Of a stretch of 64,000 nucleotides of DNA, positions 22,580-52,948 are shown one piece after another. The stretch lies in assembly GCF_055900595.2 (NCBI RefSeq), contig NZ_CM148325.1. One strand, written 5' to 3'. Position 1 is the stretch's first letter, and every line of letters begins with the position of its first letter. The notes under the pieces are model-generated. The model did not search any database, was not told where the DNA came from, and saw nothing but the letters and a program-made list of their open reading frames with translations. A program made the position numbers and the translations under genes.

Positions 22580-25090
22580 ATGAGCCATCACCACACGCAC
22601 CTGGCGTACCCGTGGAACGCCCCGCTGCCGGTTATTGATCCTGAGACATTCGGCAGAGCATTACCGCAGAAGCCAACCGCATTACAACGGGCAATCCGTG
22701 ACTACCTCACCGAAGACATTCGCACTGAGGCCCGGCTGGATGAAGAAACCGTGGCCTTCCTGACAACCACGGACAAAGGTAAGCAAATTAATTCACACCT
22801 TCACCGGGACGAAGAGCGGCAGATAAGGCTGGATAAGCTGGCACGACACAGACGCGAAAATCCGCCAACGGCGGTATCGGAGGCGATAGCCGAACTTCGC
22901 ACCCTGCCCTCGTTTCTTGCCAGTGTGTTGATCCGTGATCTGGCACGACTGAACCGGAAACAGCAAAGTGCCCGCAGTGAAGGTGTAAAAAACAACAGCG
23001 CATACGTGGCCGATAATTTCGTTCGCCGTGGACTGCGTGCGCGCCTGAAACGTATTGAAAGGGTTAACGACCGCTTTGCAACGCCGGCATTCAAAACCAC
23101 CGTCGTGCGCCATCGCCTTGAAGAACTGCTCACACTGCCGCAACTCACCCGTGACGAAATCCAGCGCATCGCCACACTGACAGCCCAGGCATTCGCCGCA
23201 GAATTTGAACGCATATGTGATGAAGTTCTTGAACGGACAGGCAAGGATAATGACAGCCCGGTTATCTGGCTGCTGGCCTACCAGAAGGTGGCACGCACAG
23301 CCTTAATTCTGGGCATGGTCCCGCCATACTGGCCGGAACTCGAAATCAGGCACAACCGACGCACACCGCCGGACCCTGAACGGGTTCCGGGTGCGGTACT
23401 GCGCATCACCTGCGCGACCTGGTGGAACAACCAGTTACGCCACGTCGCCGATCTCTGGCGGGAGGAGTTACTGCGCGCCGCCGGCAGAGTGTCACGTAAA
23501 CAATCCCCCTATATCAGCCATGAGTCACTACTGGAGTTCCGCGAGAAGCGCCAGCGCACCTGTGACTTTCTCAAAAGCTGGGATATTGAAAACGAAGACG
23601 GCGAGCGCCTGAGTCTGGAGGACGTGTACTGGGCTGGCCTGGGTAATCCACGCAACCGCCGCAATGAAATGATGGTCTGCGTCAGAGGGATGGAGATGGT
23701 GGCCGAATTACGGGCTGACGTCGCATTCTTCATCACAGTAACCACCCCTTCCCGCTTTCACAGCGTGAACGAGAACGGCAGCCTGAACCCGAAATACAAC
23801 GGTGCCACAGTACGAGATGCCAGTGATTATCTGGTTTACGACTTCTTCGCAGCCGTAAGAAAAAAAATAAAAAAAGAGGGGCTGGGCTGGTACGGCGTGC
23901 GAACCGCTGAGCCACACCATGACGGCACGCCACACTGGCATATGCTGGTATTCACTTCCCCGGAGAACGCAGAGCGCATCATCGAAATTATGCGCGAAGC
24001 AGCAATTAAATCAGATCGCCACGAACTGGGGGACGATATTTCACCGCGCTTTAAATGCGAGAAGATAGACCCGGAAAAAGGCACACCGGCAAGCTATATC
24101 GCAACCTATATCGGTAAGAACCTGGACGCCAGCGCTTTCCACAACAATGATCCGAAAACCGGAAAACCTTACGTTGATGAGGAATCCGGGAAAACCATGG
24201 CGGAAACCGTGGAGAACGCCATTGCCTGGGCAAGCCTTCACCGCATCCGTCAGTTCCAGTTTTTCGGCATTCCGCCCCGCCAGGTATGGCGTGAACTCCG
24301 CCGCCTTGCAAGCCAGATGGAGCGCAACCCGGCATCACCGAAGCACCTCGATCATGACGATATTGACGCCATTATGGCTGCCGCAGATGTGGGATGTTTT
24401 GCCACCTACATCATGAAACAGGGTGGTGTGCTCATTCCGCGCAACCAGTATCTGGTCCGCACCGCATACGAAACCGCAGACGAAGCCAACGACTACGGTG
24501 AACTCCCTCAACGTATCTACGGAATCTGCGCCCCGTCGCTCGGAGAGCGGTACACCATATGCACCCATCCGGACGAGTGGAAACTGGTTAAAAAAGAAAC
24601 AATACCAGACAACCGCACGGGCGAGGGTTTTGACCTTCAGGGCGACCCCGTCGCCCCTTGGACTCGTGGCAATAACTGTCCCCGGGATGAAAAAACAGAC
24701 AATCACGGACCAGAAAACAGGCAGGACCCCGGACGACTGACGCTTCCCGAAGAGAACCTGGAAAGCTGGCTGAATACGTTAAGCAGGGGCGATCGGAGAA
24801 AACTGCGTAATCAGATTAAAAATCAGCCGTCGGGCGCAAAAACCGGACAAAACGACACCACACCGGCATCTGACACCCCTGTAAGGGTGGGGATTGTCGT
24901 GCCTGCGGATACCGCGACGGACACGCAAATCGCCCGCGAACTTGATGCGCTGGGTGTGCAGTTGCCTGACGCGGCCATCATCTCCGTGCGTAACGGTGCC
25001 CGTGTGCGTCTGGATAACGGGGGAACAGCGTACTGGGATGAGTCAGCCCGTCACATCATCACAGAGCAGCCAGTGGAGGCGGGAGCATGA
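22580..25090 (+). CDS. A: P2 gpA-family rolling-circle replication initiation protein
   Basis: 836 aa; HWHMLVF histidine motif and catalytic Tyr region (YIATYIGKN) typical of P2 A. Confidence 0.85.
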   Translation: MSHHHTHLAYPWNAPLPVIDPETFGRALPQKPTALQRAIRDYLTEDIRTEARLDEETVAFLTTTDKGKQINSHLHRDEERQIRLDKLARHRRENPPTAVSEAIAELRTLPSFLASVLIRDLARLNRKQQSARSEGVKNNSAYVADNFVRRGLRARLKRIERVNDRFATPAFKTTVVRHRLEELLTLPQLTRDEIQRIATLTAQAFAAEFERICDEVLERTGKDNDSPVIWLLAYQKVARTALILGMVPPYWPELEIRHNRRTPPDPERVPGAVLRITCATWWNNQLRHVADLWREELLRAAGRVSRKQSPYISHESLLEFREKRQRTCDFLKSWDIENEDGERLSLEDVYWAGLGNPRNRRNEMMVCVRGMEMVAELRADVAFFITVTTPSRFHSVNENGSLNPKYNGATVRDASDYLVYDFFAAVRKKIKKEGLGWYGVRTAEPHHDGTPHWHMLVFTSPENAERIIEIMREAAIKSDRHELGDDISPRFKCEKIDPEKGTPASYIATYIGKNLDASAFHNNDPKTGKPYVDEESGKTMAETVENAIAWASLHRIRQFQFFGIPPRQVWRELRRLASQMERNPASPKHLDHDDIDAIMAAADVGCFATYIMKQGGVLIPRNQYLVRTAYETADEANDYGELPQRIYGICAPSLGERYTICTHPDEWKLVKKETIPDNRTGEGFDLQGDPVAPWTRGNNCPRDEKTDNHGPENRQDPGRLTLPEENLESWLNTLSRGDRRKLRNQIKNQPSGAKTGQNDTTPASDTPVRVGIVVPADTATDTQIARELDALGVQLPDAAIISVRNGARVRLDNGGTAYWDESARHIITEQPVEAGA

Positions 25091-27704: not shown

Positions 27705-28760
27705 TCAGGATATGGGCTGGGTGTCTAACAGTGCGTAAGGGTTAAAACGGATCACCTCTTCGCCCAGCCAGTCGTTGACGTGTTTCATTGCTTCCATGAC
27801 GGGCATCAGTTCGTTAATGGCAAACACACGGGCTGCCTTCTCCACATCCCCGAATGACCCCTTCTCACCCGGCATGGCCCCCATCAGCTGCGGCGGTACA
27901 CGGTGCACGGACAGCACATCATCACGCGATGCAGCCTTGACGTTCATGAACTCATCCTTTGCGGTGATTTGCTGAAACGGCAAAATCTGTACGCCATCCT
28001 TACCACCTCCCGCCGCGTGGATGAGCAGATTTTTAAACGCCCCGCCACCACGCGCGCTTTGCAGTGTTTCCCGCAGTTTTTCCATGCTTTCACGGTCAAC
28101 CTGCGCCGCACCGATGTAGACAATACAGCCCGCGTGTGAGCCGTTATCGTAGTAGAGCTTGCGGAAGATATCGGCGGAATGTGACAGGCTGGCAGACAGC
28201 AGGCCGCCCAGGTAATCCGGCATCCCGTAAATCTCCTGGTTGATATCAGGATTCATCAGGTGGCATATCGTCCCCTCACGAAAGCGGTACTCTTCCTGTC
28301 CTTCCTGTATATACCACCATGATTTCATATCGCTGCCACGTCGCATGTATTTCGCCAGCGCCCGGCGCAGGGCCAGCGGTTCGCCAAGCATGTTGCGCCG
28401 CAGCTCAAGACAGGCATTACCGAACACAAACCAGTCCATCGCCACCCCGGCGAACTCCTGGCGGGACAGCAGAGGATGTGGAATATAGCAGCCCAGCAGC
28501 ACATTACGTTTGAAGCTGAGCGCCGACTGGTGCCAGGACGTCTGGCGGGCAGCCCGTGCCAGTCCGTACCAGTCAACGGGCGTTTCAAACCACCGCCCGT
28601 TGTCGGCGCAGTACATGCTGTCCAGCAGGTCGGCCCCTGACAGCCGGTAAGGTCCTTCAAACGTGAAGGCACTCAGTGTCGGGTCGCTTCGCAGGGAATC
28701 CGCAAGGCTGCCCTGCGCTGCGCGGGCGTTCGTACGTCGTTGTTTATTTTTTCTGCTCAT
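27705..28760 (-). CDS. Q: portal protein (P2 gpQ family)
   Basis: 351 aa, size and position match P2 Q upstream of terminase P. Confidence 0.8.
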   Translation of the reverse strand: MSRKNKQRRTNARAAQGSLADSLRSDPTLSAFTFEGPYRLSGADLLDSMYCADNGRWFETPVDWYGLARAARQTSWHQSALSFKRNVLLGCYIPHPLLSRQEFAGVAMDWFVFGNACLELRRNMLGEPLALRRALAKYMRRGSDMKSWWYIQEGQEEYRFREGTICHLMNPDINQEIYGMPDYLGGLLSASLSHSADIFRKLYYDNGSHAGCIVYIGAAQVDRESMEKLRETLQSARGGGAFKNLLIHAAGGGKDGVQILPFQQITAKDEFMNVKAASRDDVLSVHRVPPQLMGAMPGEKGSFGDVEKAARVFAINELMPVMEAMKHVNDWLGEEVIRFNPYALLDTQPIS

Positions 28761-39124: not shown

Positions 39125-41359
39125 ATGAGCACGAGAAAATTCAGAACCCTTATCACCGACATCGGGCTGGCAAAGCTGGCCGCAACAACGGCGCCTGGCG
39201 GTAGACCTGTACGCCTTACGCACATGGCTGTAGGGGACGGCAATGGAGAGCTTCGTCAGCCGCAGAAAAACCAGACATCGCTTTACAATGAGGTTTGGCG
39301 CCAGTCTGTCAACCGCGTCTTCACCGACCCGGAGAACCCGAACCGCCTCATCGCCGAACTGGTCATTCCTCCTGAAACCGGCGGATTCTGGGTGCGTGAA
39401 ATTGGTGTGTTTGATGATACAGGTACAATGATTGCAGTAGGAAATACCGCTGAAAGTTACAAGCCCACCAGAGAGGAAGGTTCAGGGCGGGCGCAGATAT
39501 TCCGTGCAGTAATCACCGTCACCTCCGACGCCGTGGTGGAACTGGTCATGGACACAACAACAATTCTGCCGACCACGGACTACATTGATGAGAAAATGGC
39601 GGAACACGCACGTTCCCGTAACCACCCTGACGCGACACTGACAGAAAAAGGATTCACCCAACTGAGCAGCGCCACAAACAGCACCTCTGAAACACTGGCC
39701 GCCACACCGAAGGCCGTCAAGGCTGCATATGACCTTGCAGCCGGTAAAGCACCCGCCAGCCACACCCACCCGTGGAATCAGATAACTGGTGTGCCATCAG
39801 CCTCGCTGACGGCAAAAGGCACCGTACAGCTGAGCAGTGCCACAAACAGTGAGTCAGAGACTGAGGCGGCCACCCCCAAAGCGGTTAAAGCCTTACACGA
39901 TATGGTGACGAGCAAGTATACAGGACAGGATGCAACCACCGGACGCAAAGGCATCGTACAGCTGAGCAGCGCCACAAACAGCAATTCCGAAACACTGGCG
40001 GCCACACCGAAGGCAGTAAGTGATGCACTGAGCATGGCGTTCGTGAAGCCAACAACATCCCTGGGGGAAACAGACCTGAACACTCTGGGGCGTAAGGAAG
40101 ACGCGGGAGATTATTACCAGCAGAGTGACTCAGGTGCGAGAACAGACAGAAACTATCCTGTAGAGAAGGCAGGAGAGTTACGCATCCGTGTTGGTGCATG
40201 GGGATTCTGCCAGCATGAATACACGAGCTGGGATCCGCCACGAAAATTTATCAGGACAGTTACCGGAAACTTTAACGGTAACGGCCCATGGTCAGAGTGG
40301 GTGGAGGTGACAAACACAGATGCAACAACTGGACGCAAAGGCATCGTACAGCTGAGCAGCGATACAAACAGCAATTCCGAAACGCTGGCGGCCACACCAA
40401 GAGCCGTCAAGGCTGCATATGACCTTGCAGCCGGTAAAGCACCCGCCAGCCACACCCACCCGTGGAATCAGATAACAGGTGTGCCATCAGCCTCGCTGAC
40501 GGCAAAAGGCACCGTACAGCTGAGCAGTGCCACAAACAGTGAGTCAGAGACTGAGGCCGCCACCCCCAAAGCGGTTAAAGCCTTACACGATATGCTGACG
40601 AGCAAGTATACAGGACAGGATGCAACCACCGGACGCAAAGGCATCGTACAGCTAAGCAGCGCCACAAACAGCAATTCCGAAACGCTGGCGGCCACACCAA
40701 AAGCTGTTAAAGCTGCGTATGACCTTGCCAACAGCAAAGCCTCGGCAGCCCACACTCATCGCTGGGCTCAGATCACAGACGCCCCTGTTTTTTCGTCTGT
40801 TGCCCGCGTCATCATGGGTAAACAAAGCATAAAAGATATTCTTGATTACTTTGGTTTAGGAGAAGGCTCGACGCTGCCAGTTGGCGTACCCGTTCCGTGG
40901 CCTTCGTCAAGACCACCTGAGGGGTGGTTACAGTGCAACGGTGCCGCATTCACGCGTACAAAATACCCAAAACTGGCGGTGGCCTACCCTGACCTCAGGC
41001 TACCAGATTTGCGCGGGGAATTTATTCGTGGATGGGATGACCTGCGAATGATTGACAGGGGACGCTTATTGTTATCCACACAGGAAGCAACATATATTTG
41101 TACCGCCATACAGGCGTACCACGGCGTAGCGGGAGGTGCAGATATTCAGGCAGGGATTTCATTTGCATCACATGATAACGACATCATAAACATAACCCCT
41201 GATCAACCCAGAACCGGTAACGGCATCCTGTACGGCACAAAACCAGTTGACAGATGGGCAATAGCCAGAGCCGGTAAGCTGGTGAGTAATGAAAAAGACA
41301 GATGGATAGCGATCAGACCGCGCAATATCGCTTTTAATTATATTGTGAGGGCAGTTTAA
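39125..41359 (+). CDS. H: tail fibre protein (P2 gpH family) with internal repeats
   Basis: 744 aa; repeated GxVQLSSATNSxSETxAATPKAVK units. Confidence 0.85.
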   Translation: MSTRKFRTLITDIGLAKLAATTAPGGRPVRLTHMAVGDGNGELRQPQKNQTSLYNEVWRQSVNRVFTDPENPNRLIAELVIPPETGGFWVREIGVFDDTGTMIAVGNTAESYKPTREEGSGRAQIFRAVITVTSDAVVELVMDTTTILPTTDYIDEKMAEHARSRNHPDATLTEKGFTQLSSATNSTSETLAATPKAVKAAYDLAAGKAPASHTHPWNQITGVPSASLTAKGTVQLSSATNSESETEAATPKAVKALHDMVTSKYTGQDATTGRKGIVQLSSATNSNSETLAATPKAVSDALSMAFVKPTTSLGETDLNTLGRKEDAGDYYQQSDSGARTDRNYPVEKAGELRIRVGAWGFCQHEYTSWDPPRKFIRTVTGNFNGNGPWSEWVEVTNTDATTGRKGIVQLSSDTNSNSETLAATPRAVKAAYDLAAGKAPASHTHPWNQITGVPSASLTAKGTVQLSSATNSESETEAATPKAVKALHDMLTSKYTGQDATTGRKGIVQLSSATNSNSETLAATPKAVKAAYDLANSKASAAHTHRWAQITDAPVFSSVARVIMGKQSIKDILDYFGLGEGSTLPVGVPVPWPSSRPPEGWLQCNGAAFTRTKYPKLAVAYPDLRLPDLRGEFIRGWDDLRMIDRGRLLLSTQEATYICTAIQAYHGVAGGADIQAGISFASHDNDIINITPDQPRTGNGILYGTKPVDRWAIARAGKLVSNEKDRWIAIRPRNIAFNYIVRAV
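39690..40010 (+). repeat. internal direct repeat copy 1 within tail fibre gene
   Basis: near-identical to 40350..40690. Confidence 0.7.
40350..40690 (+). repeat. internal direct repeat copy 2 within tail fibre gene
   Basis: near-identical to 39690..40010. Confidence 0.7.
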
Positions 41360-41970
41360 TGAGTAACACTGCAGTTCTGGATGAAAACGGTATCGCCACT
41401 TTCGCAGGCGATATCACTGTATATCACTATGATGAGGAAACCCGGGAATACACCTCATCCTCTGTGGAGTATCTCGCCCTGGGGGTGGGTACCCCGGCAC
41501 ATTCATGCGCCGATGCCCCGCCAGAGGCAATGCCGGGTTACGTGATTTGCCGGACGTCCACGCTGGACGGGTGGGAGTATGTCCCCGATCATCGTGGAGA
41601 GACGGTATACAGCACAGAGAACGGTAATCCGGTCCAGATTACCCAACCAGGTGACTACCCGGAAGGGACAACGACAAAACAGCCTGCCACACCATGGGAT
41701 ACCTGGAACGGTGAGGCGTGGGTAACCGATACAGAACGGCAGCAAGCCGAAGAGCTGGAGGTTGCCAGACAGCAACGCAAGGAACGGGTGGATCAGGCGA
41801 TGAAGTCCATCGACCTCATCAACCTTAAGTTGCGGGCAGGTCGCAGTCTGACACCAGAAGAAACGGCAAAACTGAATGCCGTGCTGGATTATATCGACGA
41901 GCTGAACGCACTGGATATCAGCACGGAGCCTGAAATAAGCTGGCCGGAAACACCACCAGAAATGGAATGA
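41359..41970 (+). CDS. G: tail fibre assembly chaperone (P2 gpG family)
   Basis: 203 aa immediately after H with ATGA-type coupling. Confidence 0.8.
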   Translation: MSNTAVLDENGIATFAGDITVYHYDEETREYTSSSVEYLALGVGTPAHSCADAPPEAMPGYVICRTSTLDGWEYVPDHRGETVYSTENGNPVQITQPGDYPEGTTTKQPATPWDTWNGEAWVTDTERQQAEELEVARQQRKERVDQAMKSIDLINLKLRAGRSLTPEETAKLNAVLDYIDELNALDISTEPEISWPETPPEME

Positions 41971-42023
41971 GCGGGGAAAAGGAACGGGCATTCATAAATA
42001 ATTCATCATGCAGGTGCCGCAAG

Positions 42024-42043
42024 AATGCGGCACATTACCTTCA
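42024..42043. terminator. bidirectional hairpin between convergent G and U (GTGCCGCA-AGAA-TGCGGCAC)
   Basis: perfect 8-bp stem. Confidence 0.5.
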
Positions 42044-42529
42044 CATCAGATCATTTACGCCGCTTACTGTGGTATTCCAGACCGAACTTAACTTCCCTTT
42101 CATTCCCGAAAGCATATCAGACACCGGCGACGAGGCCATACTCTCCCGCAAATCCTCATCACAGCGTTCCAGACTGACAGTGAACTCAATTTTTTTGGCC
42201 TTACCGTGGCGGTCAAGTTCGCTTCGCGTTGTGCGGACAGCCGTTATCACATACATGCCGTATATCTGCCCCACACCGTCAATCAGCGGCCATGGGCGAC
42301 CAGTGTAAGCCTGCGTCGTTAAAAGGCTGAGGGAAACCTCACCGCCGGTAATTTCGGGATAAAGCACACCGGACAACGTGATCTGGTCGTCACCCGCCCC
42401 GATATACTGCCAGCTGGCCGAACGATTGATGCGTTCATTTTTAACGTGGCGCCAGGTTTTATTATGTTGCAGTTGTTGATGAGGCAGCGTACGCAACTCA
42501 AAAACAAACATGCCGTAAATCATCATCAT
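42041..42529 (-). CDS. U: tail protein U
   Basis: 162 aa, P2 U-like (MMMIYGMFVFELRTLP...). Confidence 0.85.
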   Translation of the reverse strand: MMMIYGMFVFELRTLPHQQLQHNKTWRHVKNERINRSASWQYIGAGDDQITLSGVLYPEITGGEVSLSLLTTQAYTGRPWPLIDGVGQIYGMYVITAVRTTRSELDRHGKAKKIEFTVSLERCDEDLRESMASSPVSDMLSGMKGKLSSVWNTTVSGVNDLM

Positions 42530-42540: not shown

Positions 42541-45500
42541 CTAATCTCTGTCACGGAAACTACCGACTGTCTGGCGGATACGGCGTTCCATTTCCGCACG
42601 GACGGCATCACCCACCATTTTTGCCAGTTCGCGCGGGTTTTGCGTGTGAACATCATGCAGGTGAATATGCAGTTCGCCAGTTAATCCCCATGGTGCCGGC
42701 TCACTCTGGCGCGGTCGGGGCGATGCGGGGGATATGGGCTGGCGCACAGCCTCAACCACCGGACGGGATGTTGCCGCCATCACTGGTGTCATTAGCGGGG
42801 AGAACGTCGGCATGACATCGTGAGTCATAACCGGTTTGATCACCGGCGGAACCACTGGCGTAATATTACCGGACAGTACCGGACGGACGACCGGAGGAAT
42901 AACCGGCACATTATTCACGGACACCACCGGCTTCACGACCGGCGACACGTTCGCCGTGGTGGATATCAGCGGCGAAACACTGACAGGCGGTGGCGCTGGC
43001 AGCGGTGGCAACGAAGGCACACTGACCGACGGCACCTGCGGCAGTCTGACAGGTGGCTCACTGACACTACCCGGTAACAGGGAAGCTGCTCGGTTAAAGC
43101 GTTCCTCCTTCCACTCACCACGAACGGCCAGCGCTTCCGGCAGGTTTTTAAAGATAATATCGCCGGGACCAGCGCGTTTTTTCGCCTGTTTCGCCTCATC
43201 CAGCAGACCACCGGTGTTATCGACGATTTTGTTCAGGCGGCGCATAGTGCCGGTATTCTCCCCCGTCAGGGGTGGTTGCCCCCCTTTGGGTTTTTCGCCG
43301 TCTTTTTTATCCTCGTCCTTTTTCGGCGGATTAATGACGTTAACATCCGCCAGAAGCATGGCAGCTTTCTCGTTCAGCAACTCCTTCTGTTTTAGTTCTT
43401 CCGCCTTTTTCCGGGCGCGCTCAACCGCCGACGGAATCAGCCCGAGTTTTTCCAGCACCCGGGTTAATGAGTCAATCAGCAGCGTAACCGGACCGGTCAC
43501 CAGATTGCTGATAAACTCCCCGACCTTCTGCCCGAACGTACGCCCGGCTTCCGTGCACTTGTCCAGCTCATCCTTTGTTGTGCTTACCGGCGCGAACAAA
43601 TCCACGAACCACTGCCACACACGCCCGATTGTCTGCCCGACATACTCAAACAGCGGTCCCAGTGGTGCCACAGCCTCGCGCAGTGGCGTAAGCCCCTGCC
43701 ACAGGCCGGACAAGAACCCGCCCACGACAGCCTTCAGCTGGTCCCAGTGCCGCCAGATAAGCACTGCCGCACCGACCAGTGTCGCCACCACAAGGCCCAC
43801 CGGACTTAACAGAAAACCCAGCGCCCCGCCAAGTGCGCCCACCGCACCACTCACCATCCCCCACAGTGCGGGCAGACCTGACAGTCTGAGCGCCAGTATT
43901 CCGATACCGCGCCCCAGTGAAATCAGTGCGCCGCCAGGTGAAGTGAACGCAGCCAGCAGACCACCACGCAGCGCGCCAAGTCCCGCCTGCACACCACGAA
44001 GCCGCCCCGCAACTACGCCCAGCAGTGCAGCAAACCGTCCGGCACCGGAGGTGATACCGACAAACAGCACGCGCCAGCCACCGATACCGCCCAGCGGACC
44101 ACCGAGTACGCCGCGCAGCTGCGTCAGTAACGGCAGCGCACGACCGAGGCCGGATGTGCCGGTCAGCAGGGCAAACCCAAGACGCAGTTTTGCCAGCGGC
44201 CCCATCAACACACCAGTGGCAAGTGACAGCGCCCCCATGGCCGCAACCGCAGCCAGCAGTACACCACCGGCAATCAGCAGTTGTTTTGTCAGTTCAGGGT
44301 GCGCCTGAGCCAGCGCGGTGACTTTCGCAATAACCCGGGTGAACGACTGCGTGACAGAACGCAGCGGCCCGTCAACGAGGTCAGCGACACGGATACGCAG
44401 TCCTTCCCATGCGCTGTTCAGTGATTTCAGGTCACCGTCCAGGTTATCAGCCATAACACGGGCAGTGTGATTAAGTTCCCCGGTGGCCAGTTCAATCTCC
44501 TGCGTAAGACGGGGAAGATTATTTTCCCCCGCCGCAGTGACAAGATTCATCAGGGAAACATAGGACTCCTGCCCGGCAATAGCCCTGAAAAAGGAGACCT
44601 GCGCGGCATTACCGTATTTTCGGGTGGCCTGGTACAGCTCATTCAGGATATTTTCCATCCGGCGCATGTTCCCGTAAGCATCCTGCGTCTCCACGCCAAG
44701 CTCTTTCAGTGCCATTGCAGCGGCCTTCGGCGGATCAACCAGACGTGACAGACTGGCACGCAGCGCCGTACCTGCATCACTTCCACGGATCCCCACACTG
44801 CCAAGGACACCCGTCATGGCTGCCGCCTGTTCAAGGGACAGGCCAAGTGAAGCTGCAACCGGACCCGTGTACTTCATGGTTTCACCCAGCGAACGGAGAT
44901 CCGTATTGGTTCGTGTGAAGGTGGCGGCCAGCGTGTCACCCACGCGATCCATCTGGTCAGCGGACAGACCAAACTGTGTGAGGATATTCGAACTGATATC
45001 GGCAGTCTGTCCCAGGTCCATCCCTGCAGCCATTGCCAGATCAAGCACGCCGGGTAGCGCCGCCTGTATGGCCTGTGGTGTGAAGCCGGCCATGGCAAGG
45101 AACGCCTGACCGCTGGCAGCATCACCGGCGGTAAACTGCGTTTCAGAGCCCAGCTTAATGGCCTGTTCGCGCAGCGCCTTAAACTGCGGACTGTTTTTGT
45201 CAATACGGGTCAGCGCCTGGACGCGCGACATCTCCTTACCAAAACTGACCGCCGGTTGCAGGAAACGTCCGGCCGCATAGCCGCCTGCCGCCGCCGTACC
45301 AACCGCCGTAAGTCCGACCGTTTTAAGTTTTCCCGCCGTCTCCTGAGCACGGGAATATTGCTGGCGTGCCTGCGTGACACGTGCCAGCGCCTGCCGTTCG
45401 CGTTCCAGCTGGTCGTTGTATTGCTGTGTTCGCCGTATGGCCTGTTGAATGGTGTTGTCACTGCCGGAAAGCGCAATACCGTGGCGCCGCAGCTCACCAC

Positions 45501-45852
45501 CCAGTTCGCGCATTCGCTGAACTTCACGCGCACGGACCTCATTGAGACGCTCAAGTTTGAGGCTCAAATCGTTCATCAGCTTTTTCTGTTTGTCAGACAG
45601 CACGGTTCCGGCGCGCTGAATTTGCTGAAGTGCGCTTAACTGGCGTTGCGCCCTGACAATGCCGTTTCCGGCCTTGTTTGCAGCCTCGCGGGCGCGATCA
45701 AATGAACGGGCGTGGCGTTCCAGGTTTTTGATCGCACCCTGCGTTCTCTGTATGGAGTCGCCAAGCTGGCCCATCATGCGACGGGCGTTTTCGGTGGGAC
45801 GGGTCAGCCTGTCAACAGCGCTGAAGGCGACCCGTATATCAAGCGTTTTCAT
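42541..45852 (-). CDS. T: tail tape measure protein (P2 gpT family), extended
   Basis: about 1100 aa; start taken at MKTLDIRVAF where E' terminates; C-terminal Pro/Val-rich repeat region. Confidence 0.85.
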   Translation of the reverse strand: MKTLDIRVAFSAVDRLTRPTENARRMMGQLGDSIQRTQGAIKNLERHARSFDRAREAANKAGNGIVRAQRQLSALQQIQRAGTVLSDKQKKLMNDLSLKLERLNEVRAREVQRMRELGGELRRHGIALSGSDNTIQQAIRRTQQYNDQLERERQALARVTQARQQYSRAQETAGKLKTVGLTAVGTAAAGGYAAGRFLQPAVSFGKEMSRVQALTRIDKNSPQFKALREQAIKLGSETQFTAGDAASGQAFLAMAGFTPQAIQAALPGVLDLAMAAGMDLGQTADISSNILTQFGLSADQMDRVGDTLAATFTRTNTDLRSLGETMKYTGPVAASLGLSLEQAAAMTGVLGSVGIRGSDAGTALRASLSRLVDPPKAAAMALKELGVETQDAYGNMRRMENILNELYQATRKYGNAAQVSFFRAIAGQESYVSLMNLVTAAGENNLPRLTQEIELATGELNHTARVMADNLDGDLKSLNSAWEGLRIRVADLVDGPLRSVTQSFTRVIAKVTALAQAHPELTKQLLIAGGVLLAAVAAMGALSLATGVLMGPLAKLRLGFALLTGTSGLGRALPLLTQLRGVLGGPLGGIGGWRVLFVGITSGAGRFAALLGVVAGRLRGVQAGLGALRGGLLAAFTSPGGALISLGRGIGILALRLSGLPALWGMVSGAVGALGGALGFLLSPVGLVVATLVGAAVLIWRHWDQLKAVVGGFLSGLWQGLTPLREAVAPLGPLFEYVGQTIGRVWQWFVDLFAPVSTTKDELDKCTEAGRTFGQKVGEFISNLVTGPVTLLIDSLTRVLEKLGLIPSAVERARKKAEELKQKELLNEKAAMLLADVNVINPPKKDEDKKDGEKPKGGQPPLTGENTGTMRRLNKIVDNTGGLLDEAKQAKKRAGPGDIIFKNLPEALAVRGEWKEERFNRAASLLPGSVSEPPVRLPQVPSVSVPSLPPLPAPPPVSVSPLISTTANVSPVVKPVVSVNNVPVIPPVVRPVLSGNITPVVPPVIKPVMTHDVMPTFSPLMTPVMAATSRPVVEAVRQPISPASPRPRQSEPAPWGLTGELHIHLHDVHTQNPRELAKMVGDAVRAEMERRIRQTVGSFRDRD

Positions 45853-46002
45853 GCTCTGCGTTCCCGCTGCGAAGGGCCGCCCGCTCACGCCAGGCGACCA
45901 CCTCGCCGGGATCCATCAGGAAGATTTCAGCGGGAGACCAGTTGAAAATAACGGCGATATCCGCCACAAAGTCTTCAATGTGCTCAAAGGGCACGACGGT
46001 TA

Positions 46003-46365
46003 TCAGCCTGCCGTCGCCGCCCCACTCTTCCCGCCAGAGTCCTGACCGGCCAAAAAATTAACCGCCACCCCGCACAGCTGAATAAAATCAGCGGACCCCA
46101 TGCGCTTAAGCAGAACCTCGTCCAGTCGCGGCGAAGTGACGCGCGGGAGTAACTCAAACATCGCGTCCGTTTTCATGTTCAGCACGTCAAGCAGTGACAG
46201 CCCGCGCAGTGAACCGGCCTGCTGTACAGCAGGCGTGATTTCCACATACGTGATTTTTTTGTTACCGAGCACAAGGGGCGTTTTCAGCGTCACGCCGCGC
46301 TCACTGGTCACGTCCGCCGCATCAGCACCGTCAGTAACAGGGGCAACAACCGGATTTTCTTTCAT
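46003..46365 (-). CDS. E: tail assembly chaperone E (E' produced by -1 frameshift, extending to 45839)
   Basis: position between FII and T; slippery TTTTTTG near 3' end; -1 frame stays open until overlapping the T start. Confidence 0.75.
   Translation of the reverse strand: MKENPVVAPVTDGADAADVTSERGVTLKTPLVLGNKKITYVEITPAVQQAGSLRGLSLLDVLNMKTDAMFELLPRVTSPRLDEVLLKRMGSADFIQLCGVAVNFLAGQDSGGKSGAATAG
46051..46057 (-). other. programmed -1 ribosomal frameshift slippery heptamer TTTTTTG (E/E')
   Basis: heptamer 14 codons before the E stop; -1 frame open for about 70 codons. Confidence 0.65.
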
Positions 46366-46415: not shown

Positions 46416-46934
46416 TTAACCACCAAGACCAATCGCCGAGCGCACGCGGTCCGGGAAGACGTTTTTGCCGTCCTTGCGTTCGATGTGGTTCAGTAAATCA
46501 ATCTCCAGCACCGGACGGTCGTTAATGCTGAGTTTGTAGTAGGTACTCCTGACCGCATAGGTGTGAGACGTGACCTCACCCTGTTTTGCCTCCCCCGTAT
46601 CAATTTCCGTCACGCGGCCGCGAAGCTCAATTTCATACAGGTCGCTCTGCTCTTCATCGTTGTAGTACTCACCGACAAAGCGCAGCAGCGTACCGTCGAT
46701 CGTGCCGCCGTACTTAAGGAACAGTTCGCGGGTCGGCCCGCCCATGGTGAAACTCGCATCCAGCGCGCCGTCATCCAGACCAAGGTCGATATTCACCGCG
46801 CCGGCCATACCACCACCGCGATAGGCTTCCGTTTTACGGGTCAGTTTGGGGGGGGTGAAGCCGGTCACCCTGCCAATCTGGTTCACCCCGTCAGTAAACA
46901 GCGTGAACACCCTGAGATTTTTTGGTACGGCCAT
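46416..46934 (-). CDS. FII: tail tube protein (P2 gpFII family)
   Basis: 172 aa, P2 FII-like. Confidence 0.85.
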   Translation of the reverse strand: MAVPKNLRVFTLFTDGVNQIGRVTGFTPPKLTRKTEAYRGGGMAGAVNIDLGLDDGALDASFTMGGPTRELFLKYGGTIDGTLLRFVGEYYNDEEQSDLYEIELRGRVTEIDTGEAKQGEVTSHTYAVRSTYYKLSINDRPVLEIDLLNHIERKDGKNVFPDRVRSAIGLGG

Positions 46935-48127
46935 TAAGCACCTCCAAGCGTCGCAAATGCAGGACCAAAGAATTCATCAGTAAACGTCTGGTAAAGTTCC
47001 ATATCCTCAAGCGGCGGAACGGGCGTGTACTTGTAGCGGATACGCACGCGTCCCTGACGAAGTTCCGTGGTGCTGTTATCCACCACGTCATACCAGCACT
47101 CCGCACCAATGAGACGTCCTGACGTAACCAGCGCATCCAGTTTTGCGCGAATTGCGCTTAACACGTCTTTCACATTAGCAGGGGTCAGCGGGGCATCAAT
47201 CGTTTCAAACTGCGCTTCCGCAATGGAATCAGCCAGCACCTGAGCGGTTCGCGTGTACACCTCAAAGAGATACGCCTTCGTTTCCGGCGTACGGTTGCCC
47301 CAGAAGCGGAAACCGTTACGGCAAATGATGGTAGTGATTTCCTTGTTGTTGAGATTGTTGGCATCGCTGTCTTCGGACTGAAGGGACCAGAACACCGGGC
47401 TGGAAATACCCAGCACATTTCTTACCGGCACGTTGGACAGCGATTTATGCCAGCCCTGTTCGTGGTCAATACGTGCACGTAAACCGCAGGCGTACGCCGC
47501 AGCCGGGAAGACCTCATTAGCGCCGGATTTCGGGTTATGGGCGATGAAGTCCGGCCAGACCAGCATAAGTTCGCGCTCGTTAAATCTGGCGCGGTAGCTG
47601 ATTGCATCGGCGGGCTTCTTGCAGTTGTGACAGCCCGCGTAGACAAATGCGCGAAGTTTTTCTGCAATTACACACAGGGATTTTGTGACAGCTTCAGTAT
47701 CCAGTCCGGGAGCTGCGATGATGCGCGGACGGTAACCGATGGCATCATCCTGTTCAGCTATCAGAAGTGCATACATGCCGGTATAGTTTCCGTCATCATC
47801 AGAACCACCGATAACGAGTTTGTCCTGGGTTTGTCCTGAATGCGTCTCTTCCTTAAATTCAGGAACGCGCACCACAATCACCTTCGTGCTCACCTGGTCG
47901 GCGACAGCCTTAAGCGATTTGTAAAGCGTCCCCTTTGTGCCGGCCTTACCCAGCACATCACTGACGCGGGTCAGCAGTGTGGGTTTGTTCAGCGGGAACA
48001 GAGTTTCATCCGCGTCATCTGCCGTAGCCACAATACCAATAACACTGGAATCCACATCATTAATGGCGGTGGCAAGGCCGGTACTTTCCCTTACGCGCGC
48101 ACCATGAAAGCGTGTTTCACTCATATG
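46934..48127 (-). CDS. FI: tail sheath protein (P2 gpFI family)
   Basis: about 397 aa from MSETRFHGARV; the six-frame ORF extends further upstream. Confidence 0.85.
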   Translation of the reverse strand, partial: HMSETRFHGARVRESTGLATAINDVDSSVIGIVATADDADETLFPLNKPTLLTRVSDVLGKAGTKGTLYKSLKAVADQVSTKVIVVRVPEFKEETHSGQTQDKLVIGGSDDDGNYTGMYALLIAEQDDAIGYRPRIIAAPGLDTEAVTKSLCVIAEKLRAFVYAGCHNCKKPADAISYRARFNERELMLVWPDFIAHNPKSGANEVFPAAAYACGLRARIDHEQGWHKSLSNVPVRNVLGISSPVFWSLQSEDSDANNLNNKEITTIICRNGFRFWGNRTPETKAYLFEVYTRTAQVLADSIAEAQFETIDAPLTPANVKDVLSAIRAKLDALVTSGRLIGAECWYDVVDNSTTELRQGRVRIRYKYTPVPPLEDMELYQTFTDEFFGPAFATLGGA

Positions 48128-48198
48128 TTTCACCCTTGTCTGGCTGGTTGATTTTGCGTAATCATTACCCACACACGCGGTAATCTCACCCCTTTGAT

Positions 48199-48220
48199 GT
48201 TGTCTCCTGACAGCGACAAC
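48199..48220. promoter_or_regulatory. dyad GTTGTC-N10-GACAAC (contains TGT-N12-ACA) in divergent FI/D intergenic region
   Basis: inverted repeat centred about 55 bp from inferred starts of both FI (minus) and D (plus). Confidence 0.55.
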
Positions 48221-48285
48221 AAAACAGCCATTCAACGCCGCTGCGGTGCATGAAACCATTACAGAACGCACCAGGAGAGAACACC

Positions 48286-49377
48286 ATGAAAGAGCTGTCA
48301 GTTACCGTTCCGTCACCGGATATCGACATCACCATCAACAACAACACACTGGCAAACCTCACAGAGCGACTCATGACGCTGACCCTGACGGATAACCGGG
48401 CCTTTGAGGCAGACCGCGTCACCCTCACCCTTGACGATACGGACGGGCAGTTACAGTTGCCACCACGTGGCGCACGCCTGAGAGTGATGATTGGCTGGCG
48501 AGGAGAATCACTGGTTAACAAGGGCACCTACGTCGTTGATGAGGTTGCGTGGGAAGGACCTCCAGATAAACTGATCATCACCGCCAGCAGCGCAGATTTT
48601 CGGGAAGAGTTCAACGTGAGGCGGGAGGTATCCTGGCACGACGTGACCGTAAAACAGGTTGTGTCAGCCATCGCTCACCGCTACGGCCTGAAGACACAGA
48701 TAAGCGAAATCCTCATGGATATCGAAATTGACCACGCTGACCAGACCGAAGAGAGCGATATATCCTTCCTGACCCGCATGGCTGAAATGCTGGGTGCGAT
48801 TGCCACCGTAAAAAACGGCAGCCTGTTATTCATTCTGCCGGGTGGCGGAACCGGGCCGGACGGAAGAGCCCTGCCTTCGTTCGCCATTACCCGCAGCAGC
48901 GGCGACAGTCACCGCTTTCGCATTGCTGACCGTGATGCGTATACGGGGGTCCGGGCGCACTGGCTCGATCTGAAGTTCGGGCAAAAGAAAAAAGTGAACG
49001 TGAAGCGACGCAGGGAAGCCGGGAAACAGAAACAGGAGAAGAGCAGCAGCCGGGAGGGTGATTACATGGAAGGCGCGGAAGGGAACGTCTACGTTCTGCG
49101 CAGGACTTACCAGAATGAAGAAACCGCACGACGTGCAGCTGCGGCAAAGTGGCAGGAGTTACAGCGGGGAGCAGCGGCATTCTCCATCACTCTGGCACGG
49201 GGTCGTGCCGACCTGTATCCCGAAATGCACGGCAGGGTAACAGGTTTTAAAAGCGAGGTGGACAATCAGGACTGGATTATTGCCAGGGTGGAGCACATCA
49301 TAGATGAAAGCGGCTTCACCACACAACTGGAGCTGGAAGCGAAAATCCCCGAATGGATAGCAGATTCAGGCGGATAA
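48286..49377 (+). CDS. D: tail protein D (late control D family)
   Basis: about 363 aa from MKELSVTVPSP (ORF opens at 48250). Confidence 0.8.
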   Translation: MKELSVTVPSPDIDITINNNTLANLTERLMTLTLTDNRAFEADRVTLTLDDTDGQLQLPPRGARLRVMIGWRGESLVNKGTYVVDEVAWEGPPDKLIITASSADFREEFNVRREVSWHDVTVKQVVSAIAHRYGLKTQISEILMDIEIDHADQTEESDISFLTRMAEMLGAIATVKNGSLLFILPGGGTGPDGRALPSFAITRSSGDSHRFRIADRDAYTGVRAHWLDLKFGQKKKVNVKRRREAGKQKQEKSSSREGDYMEGAEGNVYVLRRTYQNEETARRAAAAKWQELQRGAAAFSITLARGRADLYPEMHGRVTGFKSEVDNQDWIIARVEHIIDESGFTTQLELEAKIPEWIADSGG

Positions 49378-49420: not shown

Positions 49421-49672
49421 ATGTTCCGTTGTCCCCTATGCGGTGCATCCGCACGTATCCGCACCAGTCGCAATGAAAATGATTCAGGCACAGTTCGCCT
49501 GAAGTACTACCAGTGCAATAACCTCGAATGCGGGATCGGCTTTACCACACTGGAGGGTTTTAACAAATTCACATCAAAACGCGCCCCGTCGCCGCAGGGT
49601 ACAGAGCGGATACCGTGGGAAGATTTTCCGGGATCTCACAGGGGGAATACTCAGATTAATCTTGATATTTAA
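49421..49672 (+). CDS. ogr: Ogr/Delta-family zinc-finger late transcription activator
   Basis: 83 aa; CPLC...C..NLEC zinc-binding arrangement like P2 Ogr. Confidence 0.85.
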   Translation: MFRCPLCGASARIRTSRNENDSGTVRLKYYQCNNLECGIGFTTLEGFNKFTSKRAPSPQGTERIPWEDFPGSHRGNTQINLDI

Positions 49673-49784: not shown

Positions 49785-49817
49785 TTTTTTGCCCGCCGGA
49801 AAGCGGGCATTTTTTTA
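49785..49817 (+). terminator. terminator hairpin copy 1 (GCCCGCCGGAAAGCGGGC plus T-run)
   Basis: first of nine near-identical hairpins in 49.8-53.0 kb. Confidence 0.7.
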
Positions 49818-50030
49818 TTCTTTTGTGGTTATGGGGTCATCAGGAACCACGTGCAGATTATATTTTTGTTTTTTTGGCGTTCCTCCGGCAGCAACGAGTT
49901 CATCAATAAGACACTGACACGCCTGAACATCCCGGGCATGTCTTAGTTTCACCTTTATTGATTTAACCTTATCCTCACCGGAGGAGAAATGCAGTTCAAT
50001 CTCAATATCGTTTCTTCGGAACAATCTCAT
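49815..50030 (-). CDS. 71-aa hypothetical protein, intact copy of a repeated gene
   Basis: MRLFRRNDIEIELHFSSGEDKVKSIKVKLRHARDVQACQCLIDELVAAGGTPKKQKYNLHVVPDDPITTKE; decayed paralogues at 51101..51199 and 51784..51855. Confidence 0.55.
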   Translation of the reverse strand: MRLFRRNDIEIELHFSSGEDKVKSIKVKLRHARDVQACQCLIDELVAAGGTPKKQKYNLHVVPDDPITTKE

Positions 50031-50123
50031 ACGCCCCCTGAATATATCAGAAATACTAGTATCGAAAAATGAGAAAACAGTTAGACAGGAGAAACATATT
50101 AACACAAATCATTTATACCTATA

Positions 50124-50141
50124 GATGAAATTATAATTTCA
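50124..50141. promoter_or_regulatory. perfect 18-bp palindrome ATGAAATTATAATTTCAT with embedded TATAAT
   Basis: about 95 bp upstream of the 71-aa gene; related imperfect palindromes upstream of the decayed copies. Confidence 0.55.
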
Positions 50142-50250
50142 TTCATGAATATGATAGATAACTATATTGTGAACAAAATGAAAAATGGCTAAATTAAAAA
50201 TGGGCATGGAGGAATGCCCGGTTATCAATATAATGTGACGTAGATCATTG

Positions 50251-50281
50251 TTTTGCCCGCCGGAGAGCGGGCATTTTTTTT
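50251..50281 (+). terminator. terminator hairpin copy 2
   Basis: GCCCGCCGGAGAGCGGGC plus T7. Confidence 0.7.
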
Positions 50282-50450
50282 GCGCCTGCCATCGAGGCGC
50301 CTTCCCTGGCGCACACAAAGCAGCCCTGATTTTCCATGAAAACTTCAGGGTTGAGCTGCGGGCACAAAGTGAGTAGATTAGCTACGGGTACCTCCCCCTG
50401 ACAACAGGAAGGGTGTCCATTATCCATGATATACAAACGAAAAGTCTTGT
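50282..50450 (+). ncRNA. repeated ~170-nt structured module S1 (candidate small RNA)
   Basis: bounded by terminator hairpins; internal hairpins (GCGCC..GGCGC, CCCTGA..TCAGGG, CCTTCC..GGAAGG); four paralogous copies. Confidence 0.35.
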
Positions 50451-50481
50451 TTTTTGCCCGCCGAAGCGCGGGCATTTTTTT
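50451..50481 (+). terminator. terminator hairpin copy 3
   Basis: GCCCGCCGAAGCGCGGGC plus T-run. Confidence 0.7.
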
Positions 50482-50607
50482 ATGCATCAGACAAGATACA
50501 GCCCACCCCAACTGACACCTGAAATATTGCCGCAACAAAAAGAAACAGTTAAATTACGCGCGGGTGCCTTTCGGCTGATGGCCGGAGGGAAAACCTGAAG
50601 GCCGGAT

Positions 50608-50841
50608 GTGGAAAGGCCCCGGAAAACATTTCTGTTTAACCGAGGCCCTAACCGCATTACCTTGACAAGTGAAAGGTTAGCGCCTCTCCGGAAAAGGAGC
50701 AAGTGCTATGTCGCAAAAATCGCTTACGGCCATCACGTTCTGCGTGACGGCAATCCTCATCATCTGGATATTGCACGGTTCGCTGTGCGAAATACGGATG
50801 AGCTTCTGGGGAGCGGAGTTTGCGGCGTTCTTACAATGTAA
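50608..50841 (+). CDS. mok-like overlapping reading frame of hok locus
   Basis: 77-aa ORF starting upstream of and overlapping the hok-like frame, as in hok/mok/sok loci. Confidence 0.5.
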   Translation: MERPRKTFLFNRGPNRITLTSERLAPLRKRSKCYVAKIAYGHHVLRDGNPHHLDIARFAVRNTDELLGSGVCGVLTM

Positions 50842-50848
50842 GAAGTAA
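50708..50848 (+). CDS. hok: Hok/Gef-family type I toxin (intact)
   Basis: 46 aa MSQKSLTAITFCVTAILIIWILHGSLCEIRMSFWGAEFAAFLQCKK; single TM plus conserved SLCEIR motif; 5' GGGTGCCT (50552) complementary to 3' AGGCACCC (50906). Confidence 0.8.
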   Translation: MSQKSLTAITFCVTAILIIWILHGSLCEIRMSFWGAEFAAFLQCKK

Positions 50849-50934
50849 GGAAACCGCGACGGGGGAGCAATCCCCCGTCAATCGGTTGCCAGGGTAAGGT
50901 CGATAAGGCACCCTATCTCACAGACATGAACAAC

Positions 50935-50970
50935 AAACCCGCAGCATAAAAACTGCGGGTTTTCTTTTTG
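50935..50970 (+). terminator. rho-independent terminator of hok transcript
   Basis: AACCCGCAG-CATAAAAA-CTGCGGGTT followed by TTCTTTTT. Confidence 0.7.
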
Positions 50971-51100
50971 GTGTCCTCACCGACTTGAAACAGTGATCAG
51001 ACTATAAGACAAAGCCCGCAATGTTGCGGGCTTACTCTACCTCTCGAAAATGTGGTCACTGCGTGGACATACGCTGATACAAATCCTTTATATCAATAAA

Positions 51101-51199
51101 TTAAATCTTTGTTTTTTTCATCAACAATGATTTAACCTTATCCTCACCGGAGGAGAAATGCAGTTCAATCTCAATATCGTTTCTGTGGAACAGCCTCAT
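51101..51199 (-). pseudogene. truncated paralogue of the 71-aa gene
   Basis: MRLFHRNDIEIELHFSSGEDKVKS then divergent and stop after 32 codons; retains AGGAGG RBS. Confidence 0.55.
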
Positions 51200-51414
51200 A
51201 AGACAACCTCCTGAATTCATCAGAAACACAGTCAACTGAAAACCAGAAAGCAGACAAACAGTGGACACACATTAATACAAATCATTTATACCTATAGATG
51301 AAATTGCAGTTTCATCTATAACATGACAGGTAACAATATTGTGAAAAAACTCAAAACTCGTTAGATTAAAGACGGACAGAGCAATGCTACTTTATCAATA
51401 ACATGTAACCTGTA

Positions 51415-51445
51415 CTTCCTTATTTTGCCCGCCGAAGCACGGGCA
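51415..51445 (+). terminator. terminator hairpin copy 4
   Basis: GCCCGCCGAAGCACGGGC plus T-run. Confidence 0.7.
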
Positions 51446-51621
51446 TTTTTTTTGCGCCTGCCATCGAGGCGCCTTCCCTGGCGCACACAAAGCAGCCCTG
51501 ATTTTCCATGAAAACTTCAGGGTTGAGCCAAAAGCACAAAGACAGTAGATTAACCACGGGTGCCTTCCACCTGACAACAGGAAGGGTGTCCAGTATCAAT
51601 GACAGACAACTCACATTGCTG
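51446..51621 (+). ncRNA. structured module S2
   Basis: paralogue of S1. Confidence 0.35.
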
Positions 51622-51651
51622 TTTTGCCCGCCGGAAAGCGGGCATTTTTTT
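51622..51651 (+). terminator. terminator hairpin copy 5
   Basis: GCCCGCCGGAAAGCGGGC plus T-run. Confidence 0.7.
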
Positions 51652-51783
51652 ATTCTTTTGTGGTTATTGGGTCATCAGGAACAACATGCAGATTATGCTT
51701 TGATTTTTTTGGTGTTATTACAGCAGCAACGAGTTTATTAATAAGACACTGACATGCCTGAACATCCCTGACATATCATAATT

Positions 51784-51855
51784 TCACTTTATTTTTTTAG
51801 CTTGTCCTTTCTGGAGCAGAAATATCTCAACATCGTTTCTGTGGAACAACCTCAT
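51784..51855 (-). pseudogene. decayed paralogue of the 71-aa gene
   Basis: MRLFHRNDVEIF then frameshift; 3' region still alignable to the intact copy. Confidence 0.5.
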
Positions 51856-52071
51856 TTGCCCCTGAATGTATCATAAATATCAGCATCGGAAAACCAACAG
51901 CAATACAGAAGAAACATGTTAATGCAAATCACTTATACCTATAGATGAAATTACAGTTTTGTTCATAAATATGATAAGTAACTATATTGTGAATAAAATG
52001 AAAACTAGCTAAATTAAACGTGGGCATGGTGGAATGCCTCGTAATCAATAATACATGATCCGTACTTCCTT

Positions 52072-52102
52072 GTTTTGCCCGCCGGAAAGCGGGCATTTTT
52101 TT
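52072..52102 (+). terminator. terminator hairpin copy 6
   Basis: same hairpin. Confidence 0.7.
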
Positions 52103-52270
52103 GGCGGTTACCATCGCCTCACCTTCCTGGTTCACATGAAGCAACCCTGATTTTCCATGAAAACTTCAGGGTTGAGACAAAAGCACAAAGACAGTAGATT
52201 AACCACGGGTACCTTCCACCTGACAACAGGAAGGCTGTCCAGTATCAATGACAGACAACTCACATTGCTG
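52103..52270 (+). ncRNA. structured module S3
   Basis: paralogue of S1/S2. Confidence 0.35.
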
Positions 52271-52299
52271 TTTTGCCCGCCGGAAAGCGGGCTTTTTTT
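52271..52299 (+). terminator. terminator hairpin copy 7
   Basis: same hairpin, T-run after GGGC. Confidence 0.7.
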
Positions 52300-52471
52300 G
52301 GCAGTTATCATAGCCGCACCTTCCTGGCACATATGAAGCAACCCTGATTTTCCATGAAAACTTCAGGGTTGAGACAAAAGCACAAAAACAGTAGATTAAC
52401 CACGGGTGCCTGCCACCTGACAACAGGAAGGGGTGTCCATTATCCATGATATACAAACGAAAAGTCTTGTC
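52300..52471 (+). ncRNA. structured module S4
   Basis: paralogue, 3' end like S1. Confidence 0.35.
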
Positions 52472-52501
52472 TTTTGCCCGCCAAAGCGCGGGCATTTTTT
52501 T
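52472..52501 (+). terminator. terminator hairpin copy 8
   Basis: GCCCGCCAAAGCGCGGGC plus T-run. Confidence 0.7.
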
Positions 52502-52712
52502 ATGCATCAGACAAGATACAGCCCACCCCAACTAACACCTGAAATATTGCCGCAACAAAAAGAAACGGGTGCCTTTCGGCTGATGGCCGGAGGGAAAACC
52601 TGAAGACCGGATGTGGAAAGGCCCCGGAAAACATCTGTGTTTAACCGAGGCCTGACCCTTCCTACCGTGACAAGTGGAAGGTTAGCGCCTCTTTGTAAAA
52701 GGAGCAAGCGCT

Positions 52713-52853
52713 ATACCGCAAAAAACGATTATTGTTGGCATTTTATGCCTGACAATAACCCTGGTCATCTGGATGGTCCACGATTCGTTATGTGAATTCA
52801 GCTTTGATATCTGAGGAGCGCGTTTTGCGGCGTTCTTGCAGTGTAAACCGTAA
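52713..52853 (+). pseudogene. hok-like toxin pseudogene (second copy)
   Basis: paralogous to 50708..50848 but start codon is ATA and an in-frame TGA replaces the Trp codon; mok-like frame 52613..52795 retained. Confidence 0.7.
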
Positions 52854-52948
52854 GAAACCGCAGCGGGGGAGAAATTCCCCGCTATCCGGTTGTTGGGGTG
52901 GGCCGATATGGCGCCCTTTCCCTGTAGAGACAAAACAAAAAACCAGAT

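Follow-up and report, generated by a model that had tools for sequence, protein, structure and literature searches.

The 70-bp junction between the convergent tail genes G and U in a P88-like Escherichia coli prophage, a probable empty state of a variable accessory slot

The 64,000 nucleotides of contig NZ_CM148325.1 (assembly GCF_055900595.2) analysed here, referred to as the window, contain a P2-family prophage of Escherichia coli, in which the tail fibre assembly gene G and the tail gene U converge with only a short hairpin-containing gap between them. The original prediction took this gap for the place where P2 carries its nonessential Z/fun gene, left empty in this prophage. The locus raises the question of what the short junction represents: the P2 accessory position without its gene, a slot from which cargo was lost, a slot which was never occupied, or simply the point where two operons meet.

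The gap itself is as short as predicted. The stop codon of G, a TGA, is located at 41968-41970 on the plus strand and that of U, also TGA, at 42043-42041 on the minus strand; the sequence and the list of open reading frames thus define an intergenic spacer of 70 bp (41971-42040), in which no accessory gene is found. The identities of both flanking genes were confirmed by PHROG and Pfam family matches and by comparison with P2 gpU. G (41359-41970, plus strand, 203 aa) matches PF02413 Caudo_TAP (E 4.5e-27) and phrog_105 (E 2.3e-87), and U (42041-42529, minus strand, 162 aa), the last gene of an inverted F operon, matches phrog_76 (E 3.4e-71) and PF06995 Phage_P2_GpU and is 49% identical to P2 gpU. 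Upstream of G lies the tail fibre gene H (39125-41359, plus strand, 744 aa; phrog_988/381, E ~1e-190), named 'tail fiber protein' by RefSeq in identical prophages. Within the spacer, no family-supported open reading frame was detected by the PHROG search and no promoter-like site by a promoter scan, and no Rfam family was found in the junction, even at a permissive threshold (E up to 1). Two open reading frames touching the spacer were considered as genes: one of 113 aa (41967-42308, plus strand), whose ATG overlaps the G stop (ATGA) and which covers the 3' part of U in antisense, and one on the minus strand (41503-41991). Both were treated as spurious, because they match no PHROG family and are absent from the RefSeq annotation.

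In a sensitive-mode search of 5,426 complete E. coli genomes, a 151-bp junction sequence was present in 27, many of them from poultry, in which the junction is identical; no match was found outside these identical-lineage genomes, and no other junction type or cargo stub was retrieved by this search. The spacer is invariant across seven aligned members of the lineage, even where G differs.

In the surrounding late region, V-W-J-I-H-G run rightward, U-T-E'-E-FII-FI run leftward, convergent with G, and D and ogr run rightward. The leftward block comprises, beyond U, the tape measure gene T (42541-45888, minus strand, 1115 aa; phrog_28, E 3.3e-183), the tail assembly chaperone pair E/E' (45839-46365, minus strand), the tail tube gene FII (46416-46934, minus strand; phrog_55; RefSeq 'phage major tail tube protein') and the tail sheath gene FI (46934-48124, minus strand; phrog_23, E 1.4e-117; 45% identity to P2 FI), whose start, an ATG at 48124 giving a product of 396 aa, was read from the sequence. 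In the chaperone pair, E corresponds to 46003-46365 (phrog_103) and E' to a GpE-family frame at 45839-45994, assigned from the list of open reading frames and from the RefSeq name 'GpE family phage tail protein' in one of the compared loci (L001; loci are cited by such numbers below). At the other end of the inverted block, a divergent FI/D spacer of 161 bp (48125-48285) precedes the tail/baseplate hub gene D (48286-49377, plus strand; PF05954 Phage_GPD; phrog_52, E 2.2e-148; 47% identity to P2 gpD), which the inversion separates from U, and an ogr-type late activator gene (49421-49672, plus strand; phrog_603; RefSeq 'ogr/Delta-like zinc finger family protein').

The T gene varies among these phages. 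It is intact in the window at 1115 aa, and its product measures about 935 aa in P88 and 815 aa in P2. Strain LH10-b-1 has a T region some 1.2 kb shorter (regions compared: window 42541-45888, minus strand; L001 10231-12385; L089 9601-13133), and in RefSeq T is frameshifted or incomplete in LH10-b-1 and CS5L, about 1-1.8 kb beside U being unannotated. These differences could be due either to an annotation artefact or to real decay.

In P2, according to its GenBank annotation, G is followed by a terminator, an oppositely oriented fun(Z) and pF, and then by FI-FII-E-T-U-D-ogr, co-directional with G. D comes straight after U, in the same orientation, and no G-U junction exists in P2. Compared with P2, the pF-FI-FII-E/E'-T-U block of the window is inverted, D and ogr having kept their orientation; for this reason G abuts U, and FI abuts D. 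The P2-type (Peduovirus) layout, with an accessory slot after G followed by pF-FI...U-D on the G strand, is not found in the window. Because of the inversion, the proper comparators are P88-like phages.

The window indeed reproduces the P88-type layout: FI-FII-E/E'-T-U lie on the strand opposite to V-W-J-I-H-G, and D and ogr are detached and divergent from FI. The same inverted block is annotated in P88 (Xuanwuvirus, Peduoviridae), Citrobacter phage Shae_phiSM, Enterobacter phage phiT5282H and Klebsiella phage ST16-OXA48phi5.4. The junction is therefore set here in a P88-type frame of synteny, a structure that can already be read from the public annotations of related phages. The 70-bp gap is real but ordinary. 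Genus assignment in ICTV practice uses about 70% identity over the whole genome. By megablast of the 22-kb late region, the window shows about 77% nucleotide identity to P88/phiSM-type phages over only 22-29% of that region, which marks it as a separate lineage of the group. In addition, the window U protein forms a cluster of its own, whose next relatives are 82% identical: in a collection of 5.8 billion proteins, identity jumps from 99% to 82%, and no U protein 85-97% identical, such as intermediate relatives that might carry cargo would have, was found. No sequenced phage isolate of the lineage was present in the collection searched. On these sequence comparisons, the window prophage is classified as having a P88-like (Xuanwuvirus-type, Peduoviridae) layout and as belonging to a separate lineage.

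The G-U position of the relatives is frequently occupied. In P88 it holds about 2.2 kb, comprising a second chaperone gene G', an alternative fibre tip Hv' and a DNA invertase gene, and two inverted crossover sites (TTCCTGTAAACCGAGGTTTT...) are present, one beside the invertase and one inside H. A census of 80 IMG/VR loci with a U homologue revealed an invertase next to U in 28 of them, a hexapeptide-repeat acetyltransferase (RefSeq name 'serine acetyltransferase') in 33 and a GT9-like glycosyltransferase in five; seven loci have a stub or another state, and seven a bare junction with spacers of 72-74 bp, two of these belonging to the window lineage and five to another one with a different G. 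Among the 5,426 complete E. coli genomes, a P88-type U was detected in 1,315; U is contiguous with an invertase in 621 genomes and with an acetyltransferase and a chaperone (TAP) in 495, and the other bare type (L005-type) occurs in 28. The 27 genomes with the window's bare junction are further ones, as their U type differs from the P88 type, so that bare junctions account for about 55 of some 1,340 E. coli genomes with P88-like prophages (~4%).

Outside E. coli, a Salmonella relative with a U 82% identical has a bare junction of 119 bp, another Salmonella relative (U 78% identical) carries a DUF1353 gene, Citrobacter relatives (U 77% identical) have bare junctions of 194 bp, Enterobacter phage phiT5282H (Novemvirus) has a bare junction of 154 bp, and Klebsiella phage ST16-OXA48phi5.4 (Reipivirus) carries a hypothetical gene and a DUF262 gene. 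Given such varied contents, the G-U position is a variable accessory slot, and the prediction was right to treat the place downstream of G as a site for cargo in phages of this family. A comparison of synteny with P2 and with related prophages had been proposed as the check, a bare junction as the norm counting against the prediction; the outcome is divided, the empty slot being rare in E. coli and common in the Salmonella, Citrobacter and Enterobacter relatives.

Partly degraded contents were also observed. In three loci (L059, L054 and L061), all that is left of the invertase beside U is its final 40-46 codons; another locus (L045) retains a G' stub and a fifth (L070) the first 37 codons of the acetyltransferase. 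In the 70 bp of the window, no stub of an invertase or of other cargo is detectable, and the loss of a cassette is consequently deduced there only from an orphan site in H, described below.

Two further features of the relatives were noted. In acetyltransferase-type relatives (L011 9849-10751, minus strand, and ~15 similar IMG/VR loci), a 300-aa open reading frame with a Macro domain (PF01661, E 1e-18) is located between the tail fibre gene and the chaperone gene, where one would not ordinarily expect an ADP-ribose-binding or -hydrolase domain. Downstream of U, five invertase-bearing loci (L007, L035, L039, L057 and L058) contain three or four crossover sites in the same orientation, about 440-950 bp apart (TTCCCCCAAACCAACGT), an arrangement more suggestive of shufflon-like (Min-type) fibre switches with several segments than of one invertible segment.

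Invertible fibre segments served by Gin/Cin/Pin/Min-family invertases are known as the G segment of Mu, the C segment of P1 and the P segment of e14. The features of such a switch, i.e. an adjacent invertase, two inverted sites, and an alternative fibre C-terminus with its chaperone in opposite orientation, are absent from the window. No serine invertase was found there by tblastn with the P88 invertase (no match of 90 or more aligned residues), nothing further resembling G or Hv lies downstream of G, and neither gix-type sites (26-mer, up to 8 mismatches) nor the AAACCNNGGTTT core occur near the junction. A pix-type template taken from the relatives was alone in exposing, inside H, a 26-bp crossover-type site (TTCTTGATTACtTTGGTTTAGGAGAA; 40839-40864, plus strand), which encodes ILDYFGLGE. 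It differs by one base, C to T at 40850, from the functional H-internal sites of invertase-bearing relatives, and lies about 515 bp from the end of H, a distance like that found in invertase-bearing systems; lineage members L003, L004 and CS5L retain the unmutated form. Clear matches to the site (at most 2 mismatches in 17) are confined to invertase-bearing loci, the window lineage and the stub locus L059, and in two bare-junction Citrobacter loci (L095 and L096) H contains a weaker match that also passes this threshold. Allowing up to 5-8 mismatches, the window yielded no further gix- or pix-type site.

With a single site and no invertase, the window system cannot invert in cis. An orphan site without partner or invertase makes it probable that the H-G module came from an invertible system, and descent from a Gin/Pin/Min-type fibre switch is the most likely origin of the module, judging from sequence. 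As the site is also coding, it could alternatively have entered by recombination within H, without an invertase ever being present in the phage. The fibre modules are mosaic: in the comparison with an unrelated phage record, G reaches 90% identity, H only 47-57%, and within the lineage H measures 744 aa in the window vs 901 aa in CS5L, at the same junction. Downstream of that closest G homologue (90% at the amino acid level, phage 503046) come an Hv' fragment, a crossover site and an invertase.

As predicted, a single hairpin, readable on both strands, separates G from U. It is formed by GTGCCGCA-AGAA-TGCGGCAC (42014-42033), with a stem of 8 perfect pairs, 6 of them G-C, and a 4-nt loop; it is the sole inverted repeat in the spacer, lies 7 nt past the U stop and 43 nt past the G stop, and occurs once in the window. 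The minimum free energy of the 70-nt spacer is -16.3 kcal/mol on the plus strand and -19.3 kcal/mol on the minus strand, corresponding to z-scores of -1.2 and -2.4 against shuffled sequences, the plus strand being not better than shuffles. The GC-rich stem-loop of an intrinsic bidirectional terminator is therefore present, but the sequences 3' of the stem, AUUACCUUCA on the plus strand and CUGCAUGAUG on the minus strand, contain no U-tract on either strand. The hairpin was not called by a consensus terminator scan, because no T-run follows it, so that 'bidirectional hairpin' is the right description, whereas a role as terminator is presumed only, the U-tract being absent. A stable hairpin is found about 4-45 nt past the U stop in every junction type, with unrelated sequences, and U-rich tails follow most of the relatives' hairpins (P88-, L012-, L036- and L005-type). 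Covariation could not be assessed, since the spacer is identical in the seven aligned lineage members, and thus speaks neither for nor against a structural role. It is plausible that the hairpin is a shared 3'-end element of the two convergent late operons.

The divergent spacer at the other end of the block contains a TGT-N12-ACA dyad (48201-48218), the known form of the P2 late-activator site, located 85 bp from the FI ATG; the equivalent distance for P2 pF is 83 bp. Within the window, this pattern taken alone is not rarer than expected by chance. The position of the dyad suggests that a late promoter, as this element would be, moved together with the inverted block. A possible TAATGA -10 element is located in the same spacer at 48167-48162 (minus strand), and no convincing rightward -10 element for D and ogr was seen in it.

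The original prediction also placed accessory cargo in the A-Q region and after ogr, which is broadly right as to location. Between A (22580-25090) and Q (27705-28760) there are about five small non-core open reading frames, which belong to PHROG families of unknown function, have no Pfam match and were not assigned by PADLOC to any known defence family. The A-Q region is a documented hotspot of P2 (PMC9122126). After ogr, a small hypothetical gene is followed by a hok/gef (MokW-like) gene. The corresponding open reading frame (50708-50848) has a probable second copy about 2 kb downstream, and the whole stretch after ogr (49800-52900) is low in GC and is built of reiterated units (e.g. 50561-50791 vs 52566-52796, 81%; 51477-51650 vs 52126-52299, 95%). 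In the early region, isrK (60 bits) and C4 antisense RNA (80 bits) were matched by Rfam in neighbouring positions, 21614-21689 and 21725-21812 (plus strand), a pairing otherwise known from P1/P7-type immunity and from Salmonella island RNAs. In addition, a full-length match to the STnc130 sRNA (128 bits; 15987-16121, plus strand) adjoins the prophage integrase gene (16193-17197) and may lie at or near the attachment site.

The reading which best accounts for these data, with a probability of roughly 80%, is that the 70-bp spacer is nothing more unusual than the place where two convergent operons meet, and represents the empty state of a variable slot, in a P88-like prophage whose H-G module most likely comes from a former switch. 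The rightward V-W-J-I-H-G operon would meet, at the spacer, the leftward FI-FII-E/E'-T-U operon, inverted with respect to P2, and the GC-rich hairpin, which follows the U stop by 7 nt, would most likely mark and stabilise both 3' ends and limit read-through into the opposing operon. The slot is variable across the phage group and empty in the window prophage. The H-G fibre module most likely descends from a Gin/Pin/Min-type invertible switch, the invertase and the alternative fibre segment having been either deleted or never transferred; as both are absent, the fibre would be fixed in one form.

An alternative is that the slot was never occupied, the bare junction being ancestral in the clade with the inverted F operon, relatives having gained cargo by insertion, and the site in H having arrived by homologous recombination of a fibre segment. 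The nearest non-E. coli relatives are often bare and devoid of a clear crossover site, which makes an ancestrally empty slot possible; their junctions of 119-194 bp, together with that of the Novemvirus phiT5282H, the lack of any cargo stub in the 70 bp of the window and the mosaic fibre modules are all in keeping with it. However, a site only one base off the functional ones, at the same distance of about 515 bp from the end of H, would not be expected from it, and cassette deletions are directly seen in relatives, so that this alternative appears possible but rather doubtful. Quite unlikely is a different account of the same site, in which Pin/Min-type invertases encoded by other prophages of the cell would still act on it in trans and recombine it with sites in other prophages, leading to fibre-tip swaps between prophages or to inversions of chromosome segments, and the bare junction would reflect an outsourced, not a lost, switching of host range.

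The view that the window is a P2-type genome, in which the Z/fun position is simply empty, draws on the fact that P2 fun(Z) lies directly downstream of G, convergent with it and behind a shared terminator; the region after G is hence a cargo position in both layouts, and the absence of an accessory gene between G and U stands. The P2 slot, however, has G and pF/FI as its borders, U not being one of them; in the window, D is detached from U and the pF-FI...U block runs the other way; and a P2 fun(Z) query matched P2 alone among loci L001-L089, none of which has a homologue at the G-U slot. Statements on Z/fun variability rest on the GenBank annotation of P2 and on established background. Exact positional homology of the G-U slot with P2 Z/fun is contradicted by these observations and the comparison is only an analogy, making this view unlikely. 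As to the hairpin, a perfect palindrome without U-tract, strictly conserved within the lineage, might instead act in recombination or protein binding, or belong to the mobile REP-like elements, and not mark transcript 3' ends. It is nevertheless single-copy in the window, its junction occurs nowhere else among the 5,426 E. coli genomes, Rfam gives no match for it, it does not resemble gix- or pix-type crossover sites, and unrelated hairpins occupy the same post-U position in all relatives, as fits a role at transcript ends; such an identity is highly improbable.

The finding means little by itself. The analysis corrects the frame of synteny, the tail-gene layout being P88-type and not P2-type, and adds a census of slot contents and the orphan crossover site in H. 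Beside the A-Q hotspot and the post-ogr region, these prophages have a third variable slot at the G-U junction, which in E. coli usually holds either an invertase cassette for fibre switching or enzymes that modify the surface. An empty slot combined with an orphan crossover site may provide a simple marker for prophages with a fixed host range, and the stub-bearing relatives document the decay of the cassette.

Compared with known systems, the window is closest in organization to P88 and other Xuanwuvirus members such as Shae_phiSM, with which it shares the order and strands of the modules, a hok/gef-type gene beyond D (ogr), and U and FI proteins 80% and 84% identical; it differs from them at the slot, where G', Hv', the DNA invertase and two inverted gix-type sites occupy about 2.2 kb between G and U, against 70 bp in the window. 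P2 has homologous structural genes (49% identity for U, 45% for FI, 47% for D), an accessory slot straight after G and a late-promoter dyad at a like distance upstream of FI, but its F operon together with D runs in the direction of H-G and its slot lies between G and pF, whereas the F block of the window is inverted. Switches of the Mu, P1 and e14 type resemble the window in having a 26-bp site in the fibre gene, at the boundary of the constant and variable parts and about 515 bp from the end, that of the window being one base off invertase-paired sites; unlike them, the window has a single site, without an invertase and without alternative copies of fibre or chaperone. Finally, phiT5282H and the Salmonella and Citrobacter prophages with a U 77-82% identical share convergent G-type chaperone and U genes with nothing between them over 119-194 bp. 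Their spacers are longer than that of the window and unrelated in sequence, the Salmonella and Enterobacter bare loci contain no crossover-type site, and the Citrobacter H genes show only the weaker match, with 2 mismatches in 17.
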